Origin: Octopus vulgaris
Lineage: Eukaryota
Assembly: GCA_951406725.2 (NCBI GenBank)
Contig: OX597818.1
Location: 77,190,001-77,254,000 of the forward strand
Length of the DNA: 64,000 nucleotides
Direction of reading: 5' to 3'
Of this stretch, positions 25,718-51,312 are shown in pieces; positions within the stretch are counted from its first letter, which is position 1; each line of letters begins with the position of its first letter. The position numbers and the translations under genes are program-made. Under the pieces are notes generated by a model. That model was not told where the DNA came from. It saw only the letters and a list, made by a program, of their open reading frames with translations, and made no database searches.

Positions 25718-27634
25718 TCATCGTTTAACATCCGCTTTCCATGCTAGCATGGGTTGGACGGTTCAACTGGGGTCTGGGGAGCCCGAAGGCTGCACCAGGC
25801 CAGTCAGATCTGGCAGTGTTTCTACAGCTGGATGCCCTTCCTAACGCCAACCACTCCGAGAGTGTAGTGGGTGATTTTATGTGCCACCGACACAGGTGCC
25901 AGACGAGGCTGGCGAACGGCCACGCTCGGATGGTGTTTTTTATGTGCCACCGACACAGGTGCCAGACGAAGCTGGCGAATGGCCACGATCGGATGGTGTT
26001 TGTTACGTGCCCACAGCACGGAGGCCAGTCGATGCGGTACTGGCTACGGCCATGTTCGGATGGTTTTCTTATGTGCCACCGGCACTGGTACCACAAAGAT
26101 ACAAATTCCATTGATGTTCATCTGTTTTGATTTGGTTTGATTTTCACTTGCCTCAACAGGTCTTCACAAGTGTCCCAAGAAGGAAAGTATGCACAGGTGG
26201 ACTGACTACGTTCCAGGTAGGGGCCACAGGTTATGGCCTCACTAGTCTTGCCGGGTCTTCTCACACACAGCATACTTCCATAGGTCTCGGTCTCTAGTCA
26301 TTTCCTTGGTGAGACCTAAAGTTTGAAGGTCGTGCTTCACCACCTCATCCCAGGTTTTCCTGAGTCTACCTCTTCCACAGGTTCCCTCAACTGCTAGGGT
26401 GTAGCACTTTTGCACACAACTATCTTCAGCCATTCTTGTCACATGACCATACCAGCACAGCCGTCTCTCTTGCACACCACAACTGATGCTTCTTAGGTTC
26501 AACTTTTCTCTGACATTACACATCCATCGGAGCATACTGGCTTCATTTCTTGCGAGCTTACGCATATCCTCAGCAGTCACGGCCCATGTTTCACTACCAT
26601 GTAGCATGGCTGTACGTACACATGCATCATACAGTCTGCCTTTTACTCTGAGCGAGAGGCCTTTTGTCACCAGCAGGGGTAAGAGCTCTCTAAACTTTGC
26701 CCAGGCTATTCTTACTCTAGCAGTTACACTTTCAGCACACCCACCCCCGCTACTGACTTGGTCACCTAGGTAGCGGAAGCTATCAACTACTTCTAGTTTG
26801 TCTCCCTGGAACGTGGTAGAAGTTGGTCTCTGCACATTTCCAGTGTTTATTGCTCCTGAGCATCTGCCACAGACAAAAACTATTTTCTTAGTTAGCCTTC
26901 CTTTGACATTGCTGCACCTCTTATGTGTCCATAGCTTACACTTGGTGCACCTTATAGAGTTTCTACCTACACCTTTTTTACAGATCGAGCAGGGCCATCT
27001 ACCTGAAGTCGTTTGTGATTGGTACACCTTCCTACTTATTAGGACTTTGGTTTTGGCTAGGTTGATTCTAAGGCCCTTCGATTCTAATCCTTGTTTCCCC
27101 ACCTGAACCTTCTCCTCCAGTTCTGATAGTGACTCAGCAATTAGAGCAAGGTCATCAGCATAGAGGAGCTCCCGGGGGCATCCTGTCTTGAATTCCTTCG
27201 TTATTGCCTGGAGGACTATGATAAATAGGAGGGGACTGAGGACTGAACCTTGGTGGACCCCAACCTCTACCCAGAATTCTTCACTGTACTCGTTGCCAAC
27301 CCTCACCTTACTAGCAGCGTCTCTGTACATGGCTCGCACTAACCATTCATCTATCCCTAGTTTCCTCATTGACCACCAGATAAGGGATCGGGGAACCCTG
27401 TCAAAGGCTTTCTCCATGTCAACAAAAGCCAGGTACAGGGGCTTATCTTTGGCTAGGTATTTCTCCTGCAGCCGTCTTACCAGGAATATAGCATCAGTAG
27501 TACTTTTCCCTGGCACGAACCCAAACTGCATCTCATCTAAGCTAACTCTCTCTCTAATTAATTGGGCTATAACCCTCTCCGTAACCTTCATTACCTGATC
27601 CAGCAGCTTGATACCCCTGTAGTTATTTGTATCT
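25718..27634 (-). mobile_element. 5'-truncated young RTE LINE (RT ORF plus 3'UTR)
   Basis: Uninterrupted ORF followed by ~520 bp of 3'UTR and a (GAT) tail. Confidence 0.95.
26242..27591 (-). CDS. RTE LINE reverse transcriptase (C-terminal 449 aa) with PHD-like C4HC3 finger
   Basis: QFGF, FVDMEKAFDRV, GVHQGSVLSP, YADD, CSIC..CTKC..HKRC..CGRC, FRYLG, GRGRLRKTW. Confidence 0.92.
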   Translation of the reverse strand: MKVTERVIAQLIRERVSLDEMQFGFVPGKSTTDAIFLVRRLQEKYLAKDKPLYLAFVDMEKAFDRVPRSLIWWSMRKLGIDEWLVRAMYRDAASKVRVGNEYSEEFWVEVGVHQGSVLSPLLFIIVLQAITKEFKTGCPRELLYADDLALIAESLSELEEKVQVGKQGLESKGLRINLAKTKVLISRKVYQSQTTSGRWPCSICKKGVGRNSIRCTKCKLWTHKRCSNVKGRLTKKIVFVCGRCSGAINTGNVQRPTSTTFQGDKLEVVDSFRYLGDQVSSGGGCAESVTARVRIAWAKFRELLPLLVTKGLSLRVKGRLYDACVRTAMLHGSETWAVTAEDMRKLARNEASMLRWMCNVREKLNLRSISCGVQERRLCWYGHVTRMAEDSCVQKCYTLAVEGTCGRGRLRKTWDEVVKHDLQTLGLTKEMTRDRDLWKYAVCEKTRQD

Positions 27635-27650
27635 ATATATATATATATAT

Positions 27651-28293
27651 CATCATCATCATCGTTTAACGTCCGTTCTCCATGCTAGCATGGGTTGGAC
27701 GGTTCGACCAGGGATCTGGGAAGCCAGAAGGCTGCACCAGGCTCCAGTCTTATCTGGCAATATTTCTACAGCTGGATGCCCTTCCTAACACCAACCACTC
27801 CGTGAGTGTAGTTGGTGCTTTTTACGTGCCACCTGCACTGGTGCCAGGCGAGGCTGGCAACGGCCACGGTCGAATTGGTTCATTTTACGTGCCACCGGCA
27901 CGGAAGCCAGTCGAGGCGGCACTGGCATCGGCCACGATTCGGATGGTGCTTTTTACGTGCCACCCACACGGAAGCCAGTCGAGGCGGTGCTGGCATCGGC
28001 CACGATTCGGATAGTGCTTTTTACGTACCACCAGTCCAGGGGTCCTGGCATCTGCCGGGTGCCAGTCATAGGATTGTTTCAATTTCGATTCCGATTTCAC
28101 TTGCCCCAACAGGTCTTTGCAAGCAAAGGGGGGTTGGCATGGGTGCCTGTCGTCGGATGAGGTTTGATATCGACTTCGCTTGCCTCAACGGGTCTTTGTG
28201 TGTCCAAGGGAGGAAAAGCATGCATAAGTGGACTGGACTCACTTGTCCTGCCTGGTCTTCTCACGCACAGCATATTTCCAAAGGTCTTGGTCG

Positions 28294-29789: not shown

Positions 29790-32555
29790 CCTTTCCCAGT
29801 TTTCAAAGTCGGCACAGTCAATGTAGGCACAATGAAAGGTAGGTCTAGTGAGATTGTAGAGATGCATGCATGAAAGGAGACGTGTCAATATGTGCTGCAT
29901 ACAAGAGGTAAGATGGAGAGGAGCTTCAGCTAGGGTCCTCACAGGCACAGCACATAGGTACAAAATCTTCTGCCAAGGTAATACGGATGGAGTGGGGGGT
30001 GTAGTTATATTCCTTGTGGAGAAATGGGTGGATAAAGTCATAGAGATTGTCAGGGTATGCGATAGAGTGCTTAAGCTTAGGCTAGTCCTGCAGAACAGCA
30101 CAGCTACAATTATCTCTGCCTACACCCCACAAATGGGCCTACCAAATGATCAGAAGGAACATTTTTATGATACCCTTCTACAGGCTACCTCAAAGACGAG
30201 TGGCAATGACCTCATCTTTGCAGCTGGGGATTTTAATGGGCATGTTGGGCAGCAATCTGGTATCTTCACTGGTGTACACGGGGGCCATGGTATTGGTTCC
30301 CAAAACGACAAGGGAACTAGGCTACTGAAGTTCTGTGATGCATGTGACCTTTTAATCTGCAACACTAATTTCAGGAAACCAGACAGCCACCTGATAGTCT
30401 ATCAATCAGGTGACTCTGCTAGCCAGATTGATTTCATCCTCACCGGACAGTGGGACGCAGGGTTGCTCTAAAATACATAGACCCTCCTGGGTGAAGAATA
30501 TATCCCTCAGCATAGGCTAGTCATTAGTGACTTTAGGCTCGAGGCCAGAAGGATACCAAAAAGCAAACCAAAGGATTTGGAAGCTAAAGAACCCTTCATA
30601 TGATCAGAAATTTAGAGACATCCTCATCAAGAAATTTGATGGGAAGGAGGAGGAGCTACAGACATCGTACATAGAAGGTAGCTGGAAATTCCTATGGGAC
30701 AGCTTGCTGAGTGCCACAGACCAAGTCTGCGGATGGTGCAAATAGTATGGTAGACAAAGCTATTAGAGCAAAGAAACAGGCCTGGAAAGTTTGGAAGGGC
30801 AGGGATAGCAGGGAACTGTACCAGGTAGCCAAAAGGGAGGCTGGGTGGCAGGTATACATAGCCAAGGATGAAGCAGAAAAGAAGTTTGCCAATGTCCAGT
30901 GATGTGAGGACCAAAGAACTGAAGTTTTCCAGATTGCAAGACAATGTGTGAGAGAAAATTGTGATGTCACAAGAGACAAATGTGTCCACATGGATGATGG
31001 TGTACTTGCTTTTAATGATTCAGAAAAGAAAGAGACTTGGAGAAGCCATTATGAAATGGCTGAGATGCTTAAAACATCTGGTGGTGTGGGCTATGGCTTA
31101 GTCATCCGCATTGTAAACCTGGTAGTTCATGATGGAGTTATACCAAATGACTGGCATAGCAGCACTATAATCAACTGCTTCAAGGGTAAAGGGGATACTC
31201 TAGATAGAAATAACTACAGGGGTATCAAACTGTTGGATCAGGTGATGAAGGTCATAGCCAATCTCCTTAGGGAGACAGTCTGCTTAGATGAGATGCGTGC
31301 CGAGTAGAAGCACCACTGATGCCATATTCATGGTTCGACAACTGCAGGAGAAATACCTAGCTAAAGATAAACCCCTATACTTAGCTTTTGTGGACTTGGA
31401 GAAAGCCTTTTGACAGTGTCCCCAATTCCTTATCTGGTGGGCGATGCTGAAACTGGAAATTGACGAATGGTTAATAAGGTCTGTGCAGGCCCTATAGAGA
31501 GAGGCCATTAGTAAGGTTATGATTGGGTAGAAGTAGGTGCCCATCAAGATTCAACCCTCAGTCCCCTTTTATTCATCATAGTCCTCCAAGCAATAACAGA
31601 TGAATTCAAGACAGGTTGCCTCTAGGAGCTCCTTTATGCTGATGACCTGGCCCTCATAGCAGAATCACTACCAGAACTAGAAAAGAAATTTCGGGTGTGG
31701 AAGCAAAGTTTAGAATCAAAAGGCCTTAGAGTCAATGTAGCAAAGACCAAAGTTCTAGTAAGTAGAAAGGTGAACACATCCCACACACCCTCAGGTAGGT
31801 GGGCCTGCTCGATCTGTAGAAAAGGTGTAGGTAGAAACTCCATAAGATGTACTCAGTGTAAGCTATGGGCACATAAGAGGTGCAGCAACATCAAAAGAAG
31901 ATTAACCTAGGAGATAGCTTTCATGTGTGGCAGAAGCACAGGGGCAATAAACAACACAGATGCTCAGAAAATAGATTCCATCACACTCCAGGGGGAGAAA
32001 CTAGAAGTAGTTAATAGCTTCCGCTACCTAGGTGACCAAATTAGTAGTGGGGGTGGATGCTCAGAGAGTGTTACCACTAGAATAAGAATAGCCAGGGTAA
32101 AATTTAGAAAGCTTCTACTCCTACTGGTGACAAAGGGCCTCTCGCTCAGAGTGAAAGGTAGATTGTACAATGCATGTGTGTGAACTGCCATCCTACACAG
32201 CAGTGAAACATGGGCCATGACTGCAGAGGACATGTTTTGGCTCAAAAGAAATGAAGCTAGCATGATCCACTGGATGTGTAATGTCAGTGTGCACACATGA
32301 CAGAGTGTGAGCGCCCTGAGAGAAATGTTGGACATAAGAAGCATAGGATGTGGTGTGCAAGAGAGACGTTTGCACTGGTATGGTCATGTATGGATGGGGT
32401 GAGATGTGTGAAGAAGTGCCACTCCCAAACAGTTGAAGGAATCTGGAGTAGAGGCAGACCCAGGAAGACATGGAATGAGGTGGTGAAGCATGACCTTTGA
32501 ATGTTGGGCCTCACAGAGGTAATGATGAAAGACCAAGACCTCTGAAGATATGCTT
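29790..32555 (+). mobile_element. Near full-length degenerate RTE LINE (APE endonuclease, RT, PHD-like finger)
   Basis: CIQEVRW, GVGGV, ISAYTPQ, GDFNGHVG, SQIDFIL (APE); downstream RT motifs including YADD at ~31635; many stops and frameshifts. Confidence 0.92.
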
Positions 32556-35320: not shown

Positions 35321-35649
35321 CAATGGACATCTTTCGGTTTCTGTTTACTCACTAGGCTTTAGTTGGCCTGCAACTATGTGGTTGGGAAGCAAAATTCTTA
35401 CCCCATAGCCACACCTGTGCCTGTGTAATTATATATATATATTAAAGGAAATAGAGAAATACAATTGACATATTATAAATTTATAACCATTATAATATAA
35501 TATAATTATACTATAAAATAAATATAACATAATATAATGTAACTAGCAGAATTGCCCAGCGTTGCTCGGGGCTGAATTGCTTGAAAGTACTGTTAATGAT
35601 TGCACTGAATTATGATGATTATTCAGGCAAATATTGATATAAGTTTATG

Positions 35650-36160
35650 GTGGGAGATAAGGACTTAACGATCAAACGTGTGCCATTGCATTGTTTTGAG
35701 GGAACCAAATATCTGATGAGCATTATAGGGGCACCAACTTTAAGTTTGAGAAAGTGTGGTGGTAGTCCGGGGTGCTCAAAGGAATTGAGTACCTCTATTG
35801 GATAGTTGATGACGTCCTCTGGGTCAGGAGTTGTATCGATAGACTGATATACATAGACTTCCCCAGGAATGAGTTTTAGCATTTCATCATTAATATGGTG
35901 AACAGTTTTATTCCTCGGGGCCAGTATAGCCTTTTTGCCAATCCAATCCATATTCTGATAATTAGCTTGTAGATCTGGGAACACTGCATCTCTGAGATCA
36001 GAAGGCGTCTTAACAAAGGTACAAATAGAATCGATGGCAATATTACCAGTTTCATCCCCTGGTATTTTGGCTTCGCCAAATGCAAGGAGGGTGTGAGGAA
36101 ATGCTGCTGATGTGATATTACGTCGCATATGAGCACGCATATTGGTGTGAAGTTTGAAAG
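35650..36160 (-). pseudogene. Helitron PIF1-family helicase fragment
   Basis: KLHTNMR, AILAPRN..IN, YPIEVLNS..PGLPPHFLKLKVGAPIMLIR..CNGTRLIV. Confidence 0.92.
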
Positions 36161-36388
36161 TTACTTCCCTTTATTTAAAAAATATGCATTAAAATGGAAA
36201 AAAATTATGGTAAATTATTTGTAAAATCGTAGACTCATCGTAGACGCGCGCTAATACCCAGAAGGGCTCGATATGAATCACGACTATAAGACACCCGGTT
36301 TTGGTTAAACTGCATCGCAAAATGTGGGAGTAGTTAGGAATCTAAATCGGAGTAGACAGATACACAACCTTTCTTTTATATATAAATA

Positions 36389-37996: not shown

Positions 37997-39482
37997 TCTC
38001 TTATTATAAAAGGCAGATTTTATCTGCCTCCCTTTGTCTCTTATAGAAATCTACAATATAGGATTTCTTCAATTACAATTTACCTAGCATTTTTAAGAGT
38101 AGAATAAATCGGGTCGTGCCAGGTCCAGTTTTTCAAATTTCAACCCCAATTAAGCAAAATTTAGAGAAAACTCACATTGTGGTGTGTTAGTCAAGTGCTT
38201 TTCTTAGTGTGGGCTATAGCACATGCGCACACACACACACAAAAAGGGAGCGATCTGCTTCACTCACGCTATCACTCTAATTTCTACGACTTTCTCTTTG
38301 CAAGTTTGCAACGATTAAAGTGAAAACAGTGAATCCGAGAGCTCCGACAGCGATAAAGAAAATGAATTGGCACCTGAATGGAGTGAAAATTTAAAAACTG
38401 TTTCTTTCGGTGATTTTTCTGAAGAAACTGGACCAAGCCACAGACTTTCCCAGAAGAGTAAAGCCTTAGACTATTTCTTTTTACTTTTTCGAATTAGCCC
38501 ATTTGAAATCATTACGGCGGAAACGAACTGTTACGCTAAACGTAAACAAAGCGAAAGAAAGGATAGTTTGTTATTTCCCACAACCTTAAATGAAATTAAG
38601 GCCTATTTTGCCATAAATATTATTATGGGTATCAGAAAGTTACCCAGAATAACAAATTCTATCGTAAAATTTTGTTGTATACCCAATTGAATATTAGCTA
38701 ATAACCCATTTTCTATAGCGATGTTTGAACAAAATTTTAATAATTTTATATATTGTTGAATTTACCTGTATCTACCTGCAATTAGAGTCACTTTATGACA
38801 AAAATTATAGTATAGAATTGGTTGAGAACATTTCATTAAATTATCTTCCAAAATTCATGTTAATATATTGATAAATAAAAAAGTTATAGTTGTTTAATGA
38901 AACCAGACTAAATTTATGATTACGTTAGAAAATAATTGAAACACATAAGGGGTGTATTTTGGTCAGAAATATAGTAACGAAAGGGTTAAGAAAAACCAAA
39001 AAATATTTTATTCTTTATAAATGTTGTGTTCAAAATAACATTTTCTTTTAAGAATGTGTATATAACAAAGTATGTGTATATAACTACGTGGCTTATATCT
39101 TTATATATAAAAGTGAAGTTGTGTGTCTGTCTCCTACGATTTAGATTCGTAACTACTCCCACATTTTGCGGTGCAGTGTAACCAAAACCGGTTATCTTAT
39201 AGTCGTGATTCATATCGAGCCCTTCTGGGTATTAGCGCGCGTCTACGATGAGTCTACGATTTAAAAATATTTACCATCATATTTTTCCATTTAATGCATT
39301 TTTTCGCTATTATATAAGGGAAGTAACTCTCTAAAAATATCTACGATGTGTCAACGATTTAAAAAAAAAATTTACCTTAATTTTTTTTCCATTTTTAATG
39401 CATTTTTTGGCTATAACTCTCTAAAAACTCTTATATTGTTATTTCCCTTACAAACCCGAGCAACGCCGGGCGATACTGCTAG
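37997..39482 (+). mobile_element. Composite Helitron carrying a piggyBac fragment
   Basis: A|TCTCTTATTATAAAAGG start, second 5' end at ~39097, 3' cccgagcaacgccggg..CTAG|T. Confidence 0.88.
38367..38655 (+). pseudogene. piggyBac (PGBD-like) transposase N-terminal fragment
   Basis: F.E.TGP..ALDYFFLLF..EIITAETNCYA..TTLNEIKAYFAINIIMGIRKLPRI; a piggyBac-like end (AAAGGG-TTAA) follows at ~38988. Confidence 0.8.
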
Positions 39483-47533: not shown

Positions 47534-48553
47534 CTAGCAGTATCGCCCGGCGTTGCTCGGGTTTGTAAGGGAAATAACTATATAAGCATTTTTAGAGAGT
47601 TACTTCCCTTATAGATGCCAATTCGGGCTTTCTTAGCCATTTCTGTTTTGGTGTCTTCAAGCCATGAAGTCGTTGTTCTAAAAGAACGCTGGTCTCCTTG
47701 ACAATGCTTTACGATGTTGATTTCCTTACACTCCCTTCCCCACAGCTTCACGAGGGAGGGAAGAAGGGGGGAAAAGCAAACAGGTGCAGCTGTGAGCGTG
47801 GACGCCAACTCCGCCGCCATCGACACACGAAAAATTATGCATTAAAATGGAATAAAAAATGATGTTAAATTATTTTTAAAATTGTAGACTCATCGTAGAC
47901 GCGCGCTAATACCCAGAAGGGCTCGATATGAATCACGACTATAAGATACCCGCTTTTGGTTAAACTGCACCGCAAAATGTGGGAGTAGTTAGGAATCTAA
48001 ATCGAAGGGGACAGACACTCACACAACTACAGTTTTATATATATAGACTAGCAGTATCGCCCGGCGTTGCTCGGGTTTGTAAGGGAAATAACTATATAAG
48101 CATTTTTAGAGAGTTACTTCCCTTATAAATTCGGGCTTTCTTAGCCATTTTTGTTTTGGTGTCTTCAAGCCATGAAGTCGTTGTTCTAAAAGAACGCTGG
48201 TTTCCTTCACAACGCATTACGACGTTGATTTCTTTACACTCCCTTCCCCACAGCTTCACGAGGGAGGGAAGGGGGAGAAGCAAACAGGTGCAGCTGTGAG
48301 CGTGGACGCCAACTCCGCCGCCATCGACATACGATGCATTTTATGCATTAAAATGGAATAAAAAATGATGTTAAATTATTTTTAAAATCGTAGACTCATC
48401 GTTGACGCGCGCTAATAGTCAGACGGGCTCGATATGAATCACGACTATAAGATACCCGAATTTGGTTAAACTGCACCGCAAAATGTGGGAGGAGTTAGGA
48501 ATCTAAATCGAAGGGGATAGACACTCACACAACTAGAGTTTTATATATATAGA
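47534..48553 (-). mobile_element. Two non-autonomous Helitrons in tandem (47534-48047 and 48048-48553)
   Basis: Each runs TCTATATATATAAAA..cccgagcaacgccggg..CTAG on the minus strand; junction CTAG|TC. Confidence 0.92.
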
Positions 48554-48887
48554 TATACACACCACAGATTAGACTGTTGGAAAAGAGAAAATCCTAACAT
48601 TGGGCTACAAATGACTTTAGATGCCAAGAACCATCCTAAGTATCCTAGCTGTCCCTAATAACACTGTTTTTGGGATCTAAGAAAAGAATAGCAAACTATA
48701 ATATATCATTAAGAGAAAATTAAAATACAATTAATTAAAATATTTAAAACAAATAAATATATATATAAATAAAATACAAAATATACATTAAGTGAAAACT
48801 AAAATATTATCATTTAATCTATATACATTAAATTAAATTATTTATTAACTAACATTGAGCAACAAATGACCTCAGATGCCAAGAACC

Positions 48888-50252
48888 GACTGACTAGGCC
48901 AGTCGATCGCTTCCTTTTTTTTTTTTGCATCGCTCTTTTTTTTTAATTTGAAATTTATTAATAAAAAATTAACAGAAATTTTAATAGTATCTCGTAGATA
49001 TTACAAATTATACAATGAAAGAATAAAATAAAAAAGAAGTTTTTTAATAGTATCTCGTAGATATTACAACTTATACAATGAAAAAATAAAATAAAGTTAC
49101 AGGTTTTCATCAAATGGCTCTGGTGAAGGAGTTGCTCTGTTTGAATTCATTAATTTCCCGTATCTGTGCCATTTTGGTTCTTTTTCGAATCCGTTTTCTT
49201 TGTCGGAGTCACTGTTGTCGTCGAATCGCAAAGTTTCCCCGCTTCGATCAGGAGACGGAGTCCGAAGTCTGTCTCGTCTTTCTCGAGTTGTTTGTTGGAG
49301 TCCTTCGTATTCTTCTACAATGTTAACGAGATTACCATCGTTTGATGACCCTTCATCATTCTCCAGTTCCGAAAAACAATGTTCATAAAATAAGATGTTC
49401 CAAATGAAAGGATTTTATTTTTTTTTTACATATTTTAAGAATGGTGAAGCGCTATTGAACGTATACTCTGTGTATCCTGTAATAAATGCTATTCTTTGTG
49501 TTAGTGGTGCGTTATTATCGAACTTGTTATTCGAAGTAATTATTTGGTCCTGTTTGAATTTAACTGATACTTCTGTGTTAGTTCCTTCTGCTAGTTTTTT
49601 GAATGTTTGCTATGTTTCCATAGTGAAATTCGGCTCTTCGATAAGTCCTATTTAGACATTAATGATGTTTTGAAAAGGGAAACTGCTAGTTCCTTGTATT
49701 GTGCTGACATGTGTGAACGTGTCTGCAATGCTTCTGGCAATCATTGACTTACCAGTGTTAGGTAATCCTCTTAAAACTAACTGGTTTCTTTTTGTTAAGT
49801 AGTTCCCATTCTACGAATAAAGGTTCGGATATTTCTTGAGTCATGAGTATGGATCTGAATATTTTTAATGAAATATCTTTATCCATGTACTGATGTTTGT
49901 TGGATTCGAATAGTTCCCAATTCATAGTTTCCAATTATTAGAGTTTTCAGCTTAACACATGCAAGGACCTTTTTCATTATGCTATCATACATAGGATGGC
50001 TTATAGCTCTCATACAGTTTTCATCGTAATTTCTATTTAGCCAATGTGATTTCATGTCCTGCTCACTTCTGAATTTCTTACTGGTGAAAATGTATGTCAG
50101 ATAGTTGAATAGTGTCAGCGTGGTTCCACTTTTTGATTTGAAAATGGTTCTTCTTCTAAAACCTATTTTGCTAGCGTGTCAGTCACGCGATAGTAACAAT
50201 ATACTGACACGTATGCATAAAATTAGTATAAATATCAAGGCGCGTAATTCGA
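48888..50252 (-). other. Endogenous viral element (parvovirus/densovirus-like insert)
   Basis: Non-LINE, CpG-rich segment interrupting an R4-type LINE; contains an NS1 relic, a poly(A) signal and short terminal hairpins. Confidence 0.78.
49097..50150 (-). pseudogene. NS1: Parvoviral NS1-like SF3 helicase, disrupted
   Basis: Manual translation: KRNQLVLRGLPNTGKS (Walker A, 49745-49768), FPFQ, IGLIEEP (Walker B, ~49631-49651), FKKLAEG..VSVKFK (motif B'), IITSN (motif C); two stops and frameshifts. Confidence 0.85.
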
Positions 50253-51172
50253 ATCCTAGCTGTCCCTAATAACAGTTTTTTGGAACTGTACTAAACTGGG
50301 TTTTATGCCAGTTTTCTCTATCCATCTGTTCAGATCTTTAGGGATACTTCTCAATGCACATATAACTACTGGGATACATTTTACCCACATTTTCCGTAGT
50401 CTCTGTAATTCAATGGCTAAGTCCTGGAATTTTGCTATTTTTTCTATACCTCTCATATTGATCTTTTCATCATTTGGGACTGTAAAGTCAATTATCTGGC
50501 ATTTTCTATTCTCTTTATCGACTACTATTAAACCAGGCCTTCTAGCTTCTATTATTCTATCAATTTGAATGTTACAGTCCTGCAATATCTTATATTTCTT
50601 ACTTTCTAGTACTTTTATACCATTTATCAGTATGGTCAAATCTTAGCTTTCTACAAAACTCCCAATGGTTATCATGTCTTTTCATGTATTCTTTCTGTGA
50701 CAGCATGCTACATTCACTTACTATATGAGCAATGCTTTTCTCTTTTGATTTGCATAGCCTACATTGGGAATCTACTTGGTTTTTGTCTATCTTGGCTTTT
50801 ATCCAATTAGTCCTTAGTGCTTGATCTCGTGCTGCTATTAACAAACTTTCCATCTCCCTTTTCAGCTTTCCTTTCTGCAACCATAATTATGTCTCACTAA
50901 TATTATTTTCTGCAACTGTCTTTGGTAATCTACCATGCAAAGCCTTCTCCTACCAGTCAGATAGCTTCTATTCTTTTTTCTGGTTTTTAGCTTCGTTTTG
51001 GTTTCCCTATATCTTGTTGTGACTTGAGCAGCTTTTAATAAACTTTCTTCATTTTCACCTACATAGGAGTCTATATCTACTCTAGCTAACTCCATACAGT
51101 CATCTACTGATATTAACCCTCTTCCACCTTCTTTTCTAGGTAAGTATAATCTTGCTACTCCTCTCCTTGGGG
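50253..51172 (-). mobile_element. R4/Dong-like LINE 3' part (CCHC finger plus restriction-like endonuclease)
   Basis: CRLC..HIVSEC..RHDN, ARRPGLIVVDK..IID, EKIAKF, QKTV.LGTARI; the 3' tip continues at 48851-48887 and a second tip lies at 48590-48675. Confidence 0.88.
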
Positions 51173-51312
51173 GAGTTCTCCTCTGCTGAGGTCAACTTTG
51201 TCTTTCATTCTTTCAGAGTCGATAAATTAAATACCAGTGAAATGCTGGAGTTGATTTAATCGAATAGTTCTCTCCCCAGAAATTTCAGGCTTGCCTTCAG
51301 TAGAAAAGATTA

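Follow-up and report, generated by a model that had tools for sequence, protein, structure and literature searches.

A decayed parvovirus NS1 insert lies at 48888-50252, on the minus strand, of the 64,000-nucleotide stretch of Octopus vulgaris DNA analysed here (the window), and its NS1 is followed by a viral 3' non-coding region and a small hairpin, not by a capsid gene. Considered together with related loci elsewhere in the genome, this arrangement leads us to propose, with confidence a little short of even, an octopus parvovirus lineage outside the named genera that split, independently of AdSDV, a segmented densovirus from the cricket Acheta domesticus, into two segments of ~2.1-2.3 kb with one gene each, the smallest layout of the family. 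The insert would then document the NS segment almost from end to end, with internal deletions and captured by a LINE, and a capsid array at another locus (C4) would have arisen by very recent integration of the capsid segment of a virus that is perhaps still in circulation.

By definition, parvoviruses carry both cassettes on a single DNA molecule. If the proposal is true, the octopus virus would be a second segmented parvovirus, unrelated to AdSDV, and comparison with its probable one-molecule sister would allow a direct test of how one segment became two. Such viruses would also have been overlooked, with NS1-only contigs of 2 kb read as partial genomes. Further, an intact NS1 relative in public reads, captures on at least 10 contigs and a near-identical capsid array point to long as well as recent infection of octopus, which is both a farmed and a laboratory animal.

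The NS1 insert and its lineage

The best match to the insert is P0001, an intact NS1 of 547 amino acids on a 2093-base Logan contig, to which the insert is 61-87% identical over three frames. A protein search with the first 140 residues of the helicase translation (49798-49097) among longer proteins gave 17 matches out of 491 candidates, with P0001 as the best. The parts of the insert and its surroundings are as follows, in minus-strand order and with residues numbered as in P0001.

50253-51181, minus strand: LINE, 5'-truncated and decayed, 3' part of ORF2, interrupted by the insert
50181-50252, minus strand: 5' piece of the insert, without alignment to NS1
49933-50142, minus strand: NS1 piece, residues 180-249 (tblastn, 87% over 70 amino acids)
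49782-49934, minus strand, different frame: NS1 piece, residues 255-308 (tblastn, 61% over 54 amino acids)
49097-49792, minus strand: NS1 SF3 helicase and acidic tail, residues 309-547 (tblastn, 68% over 239 amino acids)
49768-49745, minus strand: Walker A
49651-49634, minus strand: Walker B
49600-49559, minus strand: motif B'
49543-49529, minus strand: motif C
48914-49096, minus strand: viral 3' non-coding region, homologous at locus C12 and behind the C4 capsid stop
48888-48913, minus strand: small hairpin at the 3' end of the insert, cut in its 3' arm at the GGT overlap
48849-48887, minus strand: LINE resumed for 39 bases, 9 bases past the interruption point (against 11 uninterrupted copies)
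48671-48848: AT-rich filler, 178 bases
48553-48678, minus strand: second, uninterrupted LINE 3' end (last 110-125 bases), which shows the empty site

The series of SF3 helicase motifs that a first-pass annotation had reported on the minus strand was borne out at that site, and the acidic, Arg-rich tail runs as described to a natural stop at 49099-49097. Its count of two interruptions was too low, as three stops lie in the helicase frame (49654, 49612 and 49417), and the quoted 'KKKI.PFIW' passes through the third of them. The upstream part, for which it gave ~110 further codons, amounts to ~125 alignable codons in two other frames. Frameshifts lie near 49934 and 49782-49792 (tblastn against P0001), with another near 50145 by eye, and a gap of 7 codons relative to P0001 separates motifs B' and C. 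Residues 1 to ~170 of P0001, including the HUH nuclease motifs, were unmatched anywhere in the window, and no capsid gene was found within it. The insert cannot encode a whole NS1, with the HUH half missing, three stops and frameshifts, and it is now most likely an inert fossil. No RNA run was listed among those that contain the stretch; contigs of run X5, whose RNA nature is only a guess, cover 48880-49421 and 49449-50208 and speak neither for nor against expression.

The parvoviral identity of the insert is almost certain, and is supported by the Pfam profile, by an intact relative with HUH and SF3 motifs, and by fold search. The minus strand of 49798-49097, with stops read as X, matched Parvo_NS1 (PF01057) at E=1.9e-10, with 40.7 bits against a cut-off of 20. 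In P0001, the HUH part comprises HFH at 81 and Y at 130, and is also present in the copy at locus C9. The AlphaFold model of P0001 reached a pLDDT of 81.5 on a 50-sequence alignment and 36 from the single sequence. Among the 50 BFVD matches listed for this model, 46 were parvoviral NS proteins, three were unnamed and one was herpesvirus U94; the best named matches were 14-27% identical in the structure alignments. AAV2 Rep68 was the first PDB match, at full length, and NS1 clusters of the Atlas were found at 0.96-0.98. A helicase from another SF3 carrier (Polinton, CRESS virus or papilloma/polyoma-like virus) or from a cellular ATPase is very improbable. The papillomavirus helicase profile PF00519 also scores (E=1e-4 for the insert, below its own cut-off, and above the cut-off for P0001), and papillomavirus E1 appears among the PDB structure matches of the P0001 model. 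However, Parvo_NS1 is the best-scoring Pfam family, the top BFVD and Atlas rows are parvoviral NS1, Rep68 is the leading PDB match along the full protein, hairpin ends are present, and the partner capsid carries a PLA2 of parvoviral type and resembles the capsids of parvoviruses. The searches did not return best hits to Polinton/Maverick, CRESS-virus or cellular ATPases, the outcome that the first-pass annotation had named as speaking against its reading.

The CpG richness noted earlier for the segment holds against its immediate flanks but not further out. The observed/expected ratio is 1.09 in the insert (42 CpG in 1365 bases) and 0.49 in the whole window, but 0.15 for the LINE sequence on the upper side of the insert and 0.0 for 318 bases on its lower side; it is also 1.09 at 47560-48560, and only 0.62 at 49400-50150.

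The helicase region was placed in a FastTree phylogeny of 164 sequences and 170 columns. Its input consisted of 203 proteins, 176 of which passed a length and score filter; 20 cluster duplicates were taken out and eight single-frame locus pieces were added. The insert falls in a clade of 38 tips (support 0.91), whose named members are Octopus proteins and one protein of the tubeworm Lamellibrachia, and the earlier suggestion of a mollusc-infecting lineage is thus supported. Sequences labelled as ichthama- or chapparvoviruses join this clade at a support of only 0.65. No named virus was found inside it among the 10 tips for which names were sought, and we assign the clade to no genus or subfamily. 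Scans of IMG/VR with P0001, P0047 and an alignment, and of one JGI metagenome, confirmed no relative. Many intact-looking NS1 frames of a sister clade (P0003-P0014, P0058) occur on long ENA contigs, several per contig, and one cluster member of this set bears the name Lamellibrachia satsuma.

Integration into a LINE

The limits of 48888 and 50252 given by the first-pass annotation are the exact junctions with a LINE, which we take to be a restriction-like endonuclease LINE from its CCHC and PD..D motifs; no Pfam family passed for the interrupted copy. The family has thousands of copies (2540 first-look candidates in the genome), and the interrupted copy is 81-86% identical to all 11 other copies fetched. 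Compared with these 11 uninterrupted copies, the insert replaces nine LINE bases without a target duplication, and a 3-base overlap (GGT) between insert and LINE marks the lower junction. The insert is oriented like the LINE, whose 3' end is 110 bases away. The empty site has been inferred from the 11 paralogous copies, and the second LINE end in the window shares 89-90% of its bases with the interrupted copy in stretches of 37 and 39 bases, and 80-88% with other copies. The AT-rich filler is missing from ordinary LINE copies. A viral origin of this filler is unsupported, as its comparison with the viral 3' region gave no significant match (219 of 1000 shuffles reach the score). Spread of the insert by the LINE as a chimera was likewise rejected, since near-identical LINE-virus copies were not found and viral DNA was present in none of the 11 other LINE loci. 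The insert DNA has nine matches in the genome, and the eight others are partial and 70-86% identical.

That the insert resides in the germline, as first proposed, is as good as certain. The stretch is present in 20 of the 24 runs listed, from nine studies (one possibly the source) and three recorded organisms (A, B and C). Of four runs examined at the junctions, three, from the three organisms, held bridging contigs. The contig from organism B reaches across both junctions (48819-50340); it has 11 other letters (0.7% difference) and 29 gap letters. Contigs from organisms A and C bridge the upper junction with zero and three differences, respectively. A lack of junction-spanning sequence, which had been named as evidence against integration, is therefore not what the runs show. 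As junctions are bridged in organisms A and B, the insertion is germline and predates the A/B split, and because some breaks are not common to the runs, decay continued after the split. Free virus sequence mis-assembled into the chromosome is exceedingly improbable at the window locus. Nothing speaks for it there, whereas junction-bridging contigs in independent runs, common breaks and single-copy depth (against thousands for the LINE) speak against it; for the C4 capsid array it may apply. Dating by stop counts, based on 5.4% of single changes producing a stop, was dropped because not all three stops are common to the runs. The insertion, common to three recorded organisms, could serve as a minimum age marker.

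How the viral DNA entered the LINE is less clear-cut. Capture by the LINE itself has an even chance in our judgement, and template switching by the LINE enzyme and end-joining repair stand about even. In the former case, the LINE reverse transcriptase, copying from the LINE 3' end, would have jumped at the 3-base overlap onto a viral template and, after 1365 viral bases, jumped back nine bases further on. A second switch-like composite join lies within 40 bases below the insert, and the 5' end of the insert would fall at about the predicted transcription start. Against this route, the insert extends ~65 bases beyond AATAAA, which misfits a normally polyadenylated RNA template and fits viral DNA. 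Alternatively, viral single-stranded DNA could have been patched into a break in a resident LINE by end joining, with the 9-base deletion and the 3-base overlap as its traces, a route that we hold to be only slightly short of evenly probable. The missing target duplication, the nine lost bases and the overlap are all consistent with it, as are the passage of the insert through the polyadenylation signal and its ending in a hairpin. Further, the LINE differs by 14-19% from its closest paralogues, compared with 0.7% between organisms A and B, which leaves time for a later insertion, and LINEs are so abundant that the site needs no special cause. The same sense, the nearness to the LINE 3' end and the second composite join argue against end joining, and so do the same-sense LINE neighbours of the NS1 copies at C9 and C12.

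Viral ends and genome layout

The 3' region of the insert contains a 54-base direct repeat (48979-49032 and 49042-49095, 96% identical), AATAAA near 48959 and two A tracts. Locus C12 aligns with the insert at 75% over 1059 columns, up to the last base of the insert, and has the same run of repeat, AATAAA, A tracts and hairpin, so that the whole 3' end of the insert is viral. A reading of the A tracts as a retroposed poly(A) tail was rejected, as C12 has the same tracts and continues to the same hairpin. The insert and C12 do not end at the same base either, since C12 continues for ~8 bases and completes the stem.

The window holds the small hairpin only, with a fold z of -2.5 (2 of 200 shuffles); across loci, the small hairpins range from z=-2.2 to -4.8. 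Hairpins stand at a similar distance from the stop at C12, C29 and C4. From the NS1 stop to the hairpin arm there are 207 bases in the window, 212 at C12 and 233 at C29, and 245 bases separate the C4 capsid stop from its arm. The 3' motif follows directly behind NS1 at C9 and C15, and in all, five loci show the 3' motif or poly(A) directly behind NS1. In the source virus, NS1 was very probably the last gene before the right end.

A piece upstream of NS1 at C12 led to the C4 array. This array (C4:168362268-168376366) consists of capsid-only parvoviral units, tandem and inverted, with open frames that are annotated as host 'capsid' proteins and with many amplified 125-base terminal repeats. An open frame of 542 codons differs at one of 1626 bases between two copies. 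A capsid protein identical to one encoded in this genome is recorded under the name Octopus vulgaris. The capsid has a PLA2 domain (E=2e-13) and weakly matches the capsids of PmMDV (E=9e-5) and IHHNV (E=0.003-0.01). One unit runs from a perfect palindrome (fold z=-17.7) through 458 bases with a TATA box to the ATG and capsid frame; behind the capsid, 252 bases lead to the small hairpin, which is followed by inverted copies of the terminal element. The distance from the palindrome centre to the small hairpin is 2321 bases. In the 30 kb fetched, NS1 had no match at E<=1. The left terminus had 36 of its 37 matches at C4, and the remaining one was a 33-base low-complexity match. The array adjoins a 100-N assembly gap, and it may stem from very recent integration or else be replicating DNA that was wrongly scaffolded. 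The 3' motif is missing from a second capsid end, on the contig of the window (C5, 102.66 Mb).

The shuffle tests indicate three non-coding elements common to the NS1 and capsid cassettes, namely the 3' region, the terminal element and the leader. The 3' regions of the insert and of the C4 capsid match in the same sense at 68% over 180 bases (E 2e-10, 0 of 1000 shuffles), compared with 324 of 1000 shuffles for the reversed control and 219 of 1000 for an AT-rich host control. Behind the C29 hairpin lie a T tract and a purine-rich element, and the C4 terminal element recurs there in inverted orientation, at 77-78% over 60 bases (0 of 2000 shuffles). The first bases of the insert match the end of the C4 capsid leader at 18 of 20 positions, a score reached by 4 of 2000 shuffles over the whole leader. 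This leader-like stretch opens the piece at 50181-50252 and is followed 10 bases later by an ATG at 50218; the piece had no match in the other loci tested, and it may represent a viral leader. A shared 15-base motif has 63 matches in the genome, compared with 45 for a control, and 13 of the 63 lie in these viral loci; close pairs of the motif occur only at C4 and in the window. The hairpins of C4 and the window differ in sequence and thus come from different strains.

Taken together, these ends give an even chance, in our estimate, that the source virus carried NS1 and capsid on two DNA segments of ~2.1-2.3 kb with related ends. Each segment would comprise a terminal repeat, a promoter, one gene, the shared 3' region, the small hairpin and a terminal repeat, and NS1 made from one segment would replicate both in trans by rolling-hairpin replication. 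Both genes have the same kind of right end, and the capsid also has a close left end, so two single-gene segments are the simplest reading. That the two genes belong to one kind of virus follows from the joined capsid and NS1 pieces at C12 and C29. The VP unit is bounded at both ends (C4) and the NS1 cassette at its 3' end only, the capsid-only evidence comes from the one locus beside the assembly gap, and NS1 contigs of short length, such as the 2093 bases of the P0001 contig, would suit an mRNA no less than a segment.

Evidence for a different layout comes from NS1 P0047 (38% to P0001) and capsid P0195 (41% to the C4 capsid), each of which lies on an ENA contig of 4017 bases; most probably this is a single molecule carrying the two genes. 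It could represent a sister lineage with one molecule, two sequences wrongly joined, or the layout that all these viruses really have. The main rival, one molecule of 4-4.5 kb with the capsid first and NS1 last, from which C4 would derive by loss of NS1 and the insert by loss of the capsid and the NS1 start, is in our view unlikely; such an order would also be unusual for a parvovirus. It would accommodate the contig, as well as the position of the capsid close to a left end and of NS1 close to a right end, and the insert's leader-like 5' piece might itself be that left end. The capsid frame at C12 continues up to its stop, where it meets the middle of NS1, and C29 likewise has a capsid piece ahead of the NS1 end in the same orientation, an order that also fits a capsid-before-NS1 molecule with deletions. 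However, C4 would then need a deletion that starts no more than 55 bases behind the capsid stop and ends no more than ~10 bases behind the NS1 stop, and this would have to leave no NS1 trace in any C4 unit. In addition, the bases after the ATG of the insert are, by eye, unlike the conserved capsid start, and P0047 branches just outside the clade of the insert (P0001/P0002), which places the 4017-base relative outside that clade.

Integrated parvoviral DNA is often rearranged, and the loci at C12, C14 and C29 are indeed rearranged. The octopus copies could accordingly stem from defective or rearranged genomes of a virus with NS1 followed by the capsid, or with an ambisense arrangement, which is the family norm in the accessible part of PMC13426907. 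This is improbable given that NS1 is followed at once by the 3' motif or poly(A) at five loci that diverged as viruses, that three of the loci have the hairpin 207-233 bases behind it, and that the 3' regions behind NS1 and behind the capsid agree in like orientation and not reversed (0 against 324 of 1000 shuffles).

Other viral loci and known systems

The copy-number check proposed with the first-pass annotation was carried out, and related NS1 pieces were found on 10 contigs (26 matches in a genome search with P0001). A genome search with the NS1 start gave three matches, none of them before residue 38, and no locus contained the NS1 start together with its left end. At second codon positions, the insert agrees with the copies at C9 and C29 in 80 of 85 cases, and at third positions in only 36 and 39 of 85, respectively. 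Divergence mostly at third codon positions indicates that these copies grew apart as coding viruses and entered the genome by separate captures.

The C9 copy (C9:9514405-9516000) contains NS1 from residue 38 to the stop, ends in poly(A) and is flanked by a duplication of 67 bases. It interrupts a LINE between the ORF1-like part and the endonuclease part. The upstream LINE frame continues into the 5' part of the copy, giving a stop-free stretch of 465 codons, and the poly(A) end and flanking duplication would be the marks of a retroposed mRNA. At C12, NS1 adjoins a LINE reverse transcriptase piece in the same sense. The locus C14:64321465-64338720 holds at least five NS1 pieces of four sublineages within 17 kb, amid transposon remnants and ankyrin-like repeats, and may resemble a trap locus such as a piRNA cluster. 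At C29:19151772-19155050, C14 and C15, NS1 pieces lie directly beside DDE transposase remnants, presumably of Merlin/IS1595 type from their look. Part of the C29 locus is duplicated, and a piece of capsid gene stands there between pieces of NS1. Another NS1 lineage, only distantly related (27-29% identity to P0001), occurs at C19:23965826-23966563 and C14:64334043-64334756, and by eye resembles Euprymna and Sepia sequences in the accessible part of a 2016 supplement (PMC5013282). Finally, a distant capsid-like frame at C22:543828-544736 is 23-26% identical to the C4 capsid and runs for 402 codons without a stop before an A tract.

Octopus NS1 relics are already known, and what is new here is the layout of the viral ends. 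The accessible part of Francois et al. 2016 (PMC5013282) lists this NS1 lineage from Octopus bimaculoides as endogenous, as well as an Octopus vulgaris VP transcript and related Lamellibrachia sequences, and its supplement flags KOF81493 / A0A0L8GWZ8 'Yes' for adjacent element/degeneration. This O. bimaculoides protein (P0046 in our set) is 68-72% identical to P0001 and falls in the same subclade as the insert. The 2016 sequences, as given in that part, are helicase fragments named by best BLAST match, without ends, layout, junctions or the window locus (PMC5013282). Nothing on the ends or layout of an octopus or cephalopod parvovirus was found in the literature searched, which was mostly outside subscription journals. 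In the accessible portions of PMC13426907 and PMC11357303, AdSDV is the only parvovirus named as bipartite; PMC11360563, from its accessible portion, concerns a plant virus.

AdSDV carries its NS and VP cassettes on separate molecules that share corresponding ends, which is how the octopus virus would work on the two-segment reading, although its segments are deduced from fossils and not from particles (accessible part of PMC10267136, as for the following features). The AdSDV segments are 3316 and 3332 bases long with several ORFs, compared with ~2.3 kb and one long ORF in the octopus virus. AdSDV has T-shaped hairpins without inverted terminal repeats, while the octopus virus has inverted terminal elements. 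Its 378-amino-acid capsid lacks a PLA2 of its own, and the octopus capsid has an N-terminal PLA2; its NS1 is of brevihamaparvovirus type with 796 amino acids, compared with 547 amino acids and a separate clade for the octopus type. Named Parvoviridae in general (densoviruses, ichthama- and chaphamaparvoviruses, IHHNV, PmMDV) share an NS1 with HUH and SF3 parts, hairpin ends and a jelly-roll-type capsid, but the best named matches are only 14-27% identical to the P0001 model in structure alignments.

Elsewhere in the window, no host gene was identified in a search that stopped short of exons. Transposon remnants lie at 709-1464, 26242-27684, 29860-30471, 35619-36170 and 38319-38690, and include a mariner-type transposase, LINE reverse transcriptase and endonuclease, a Pif1 helicase piece and an IS4/piggyBac-type piece. 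Two tandem copies (~515 bases, 93%) of a CpG-rich, very high-copy repeat occupy 47546-48560, and further copies occur near 36240 and 39094.
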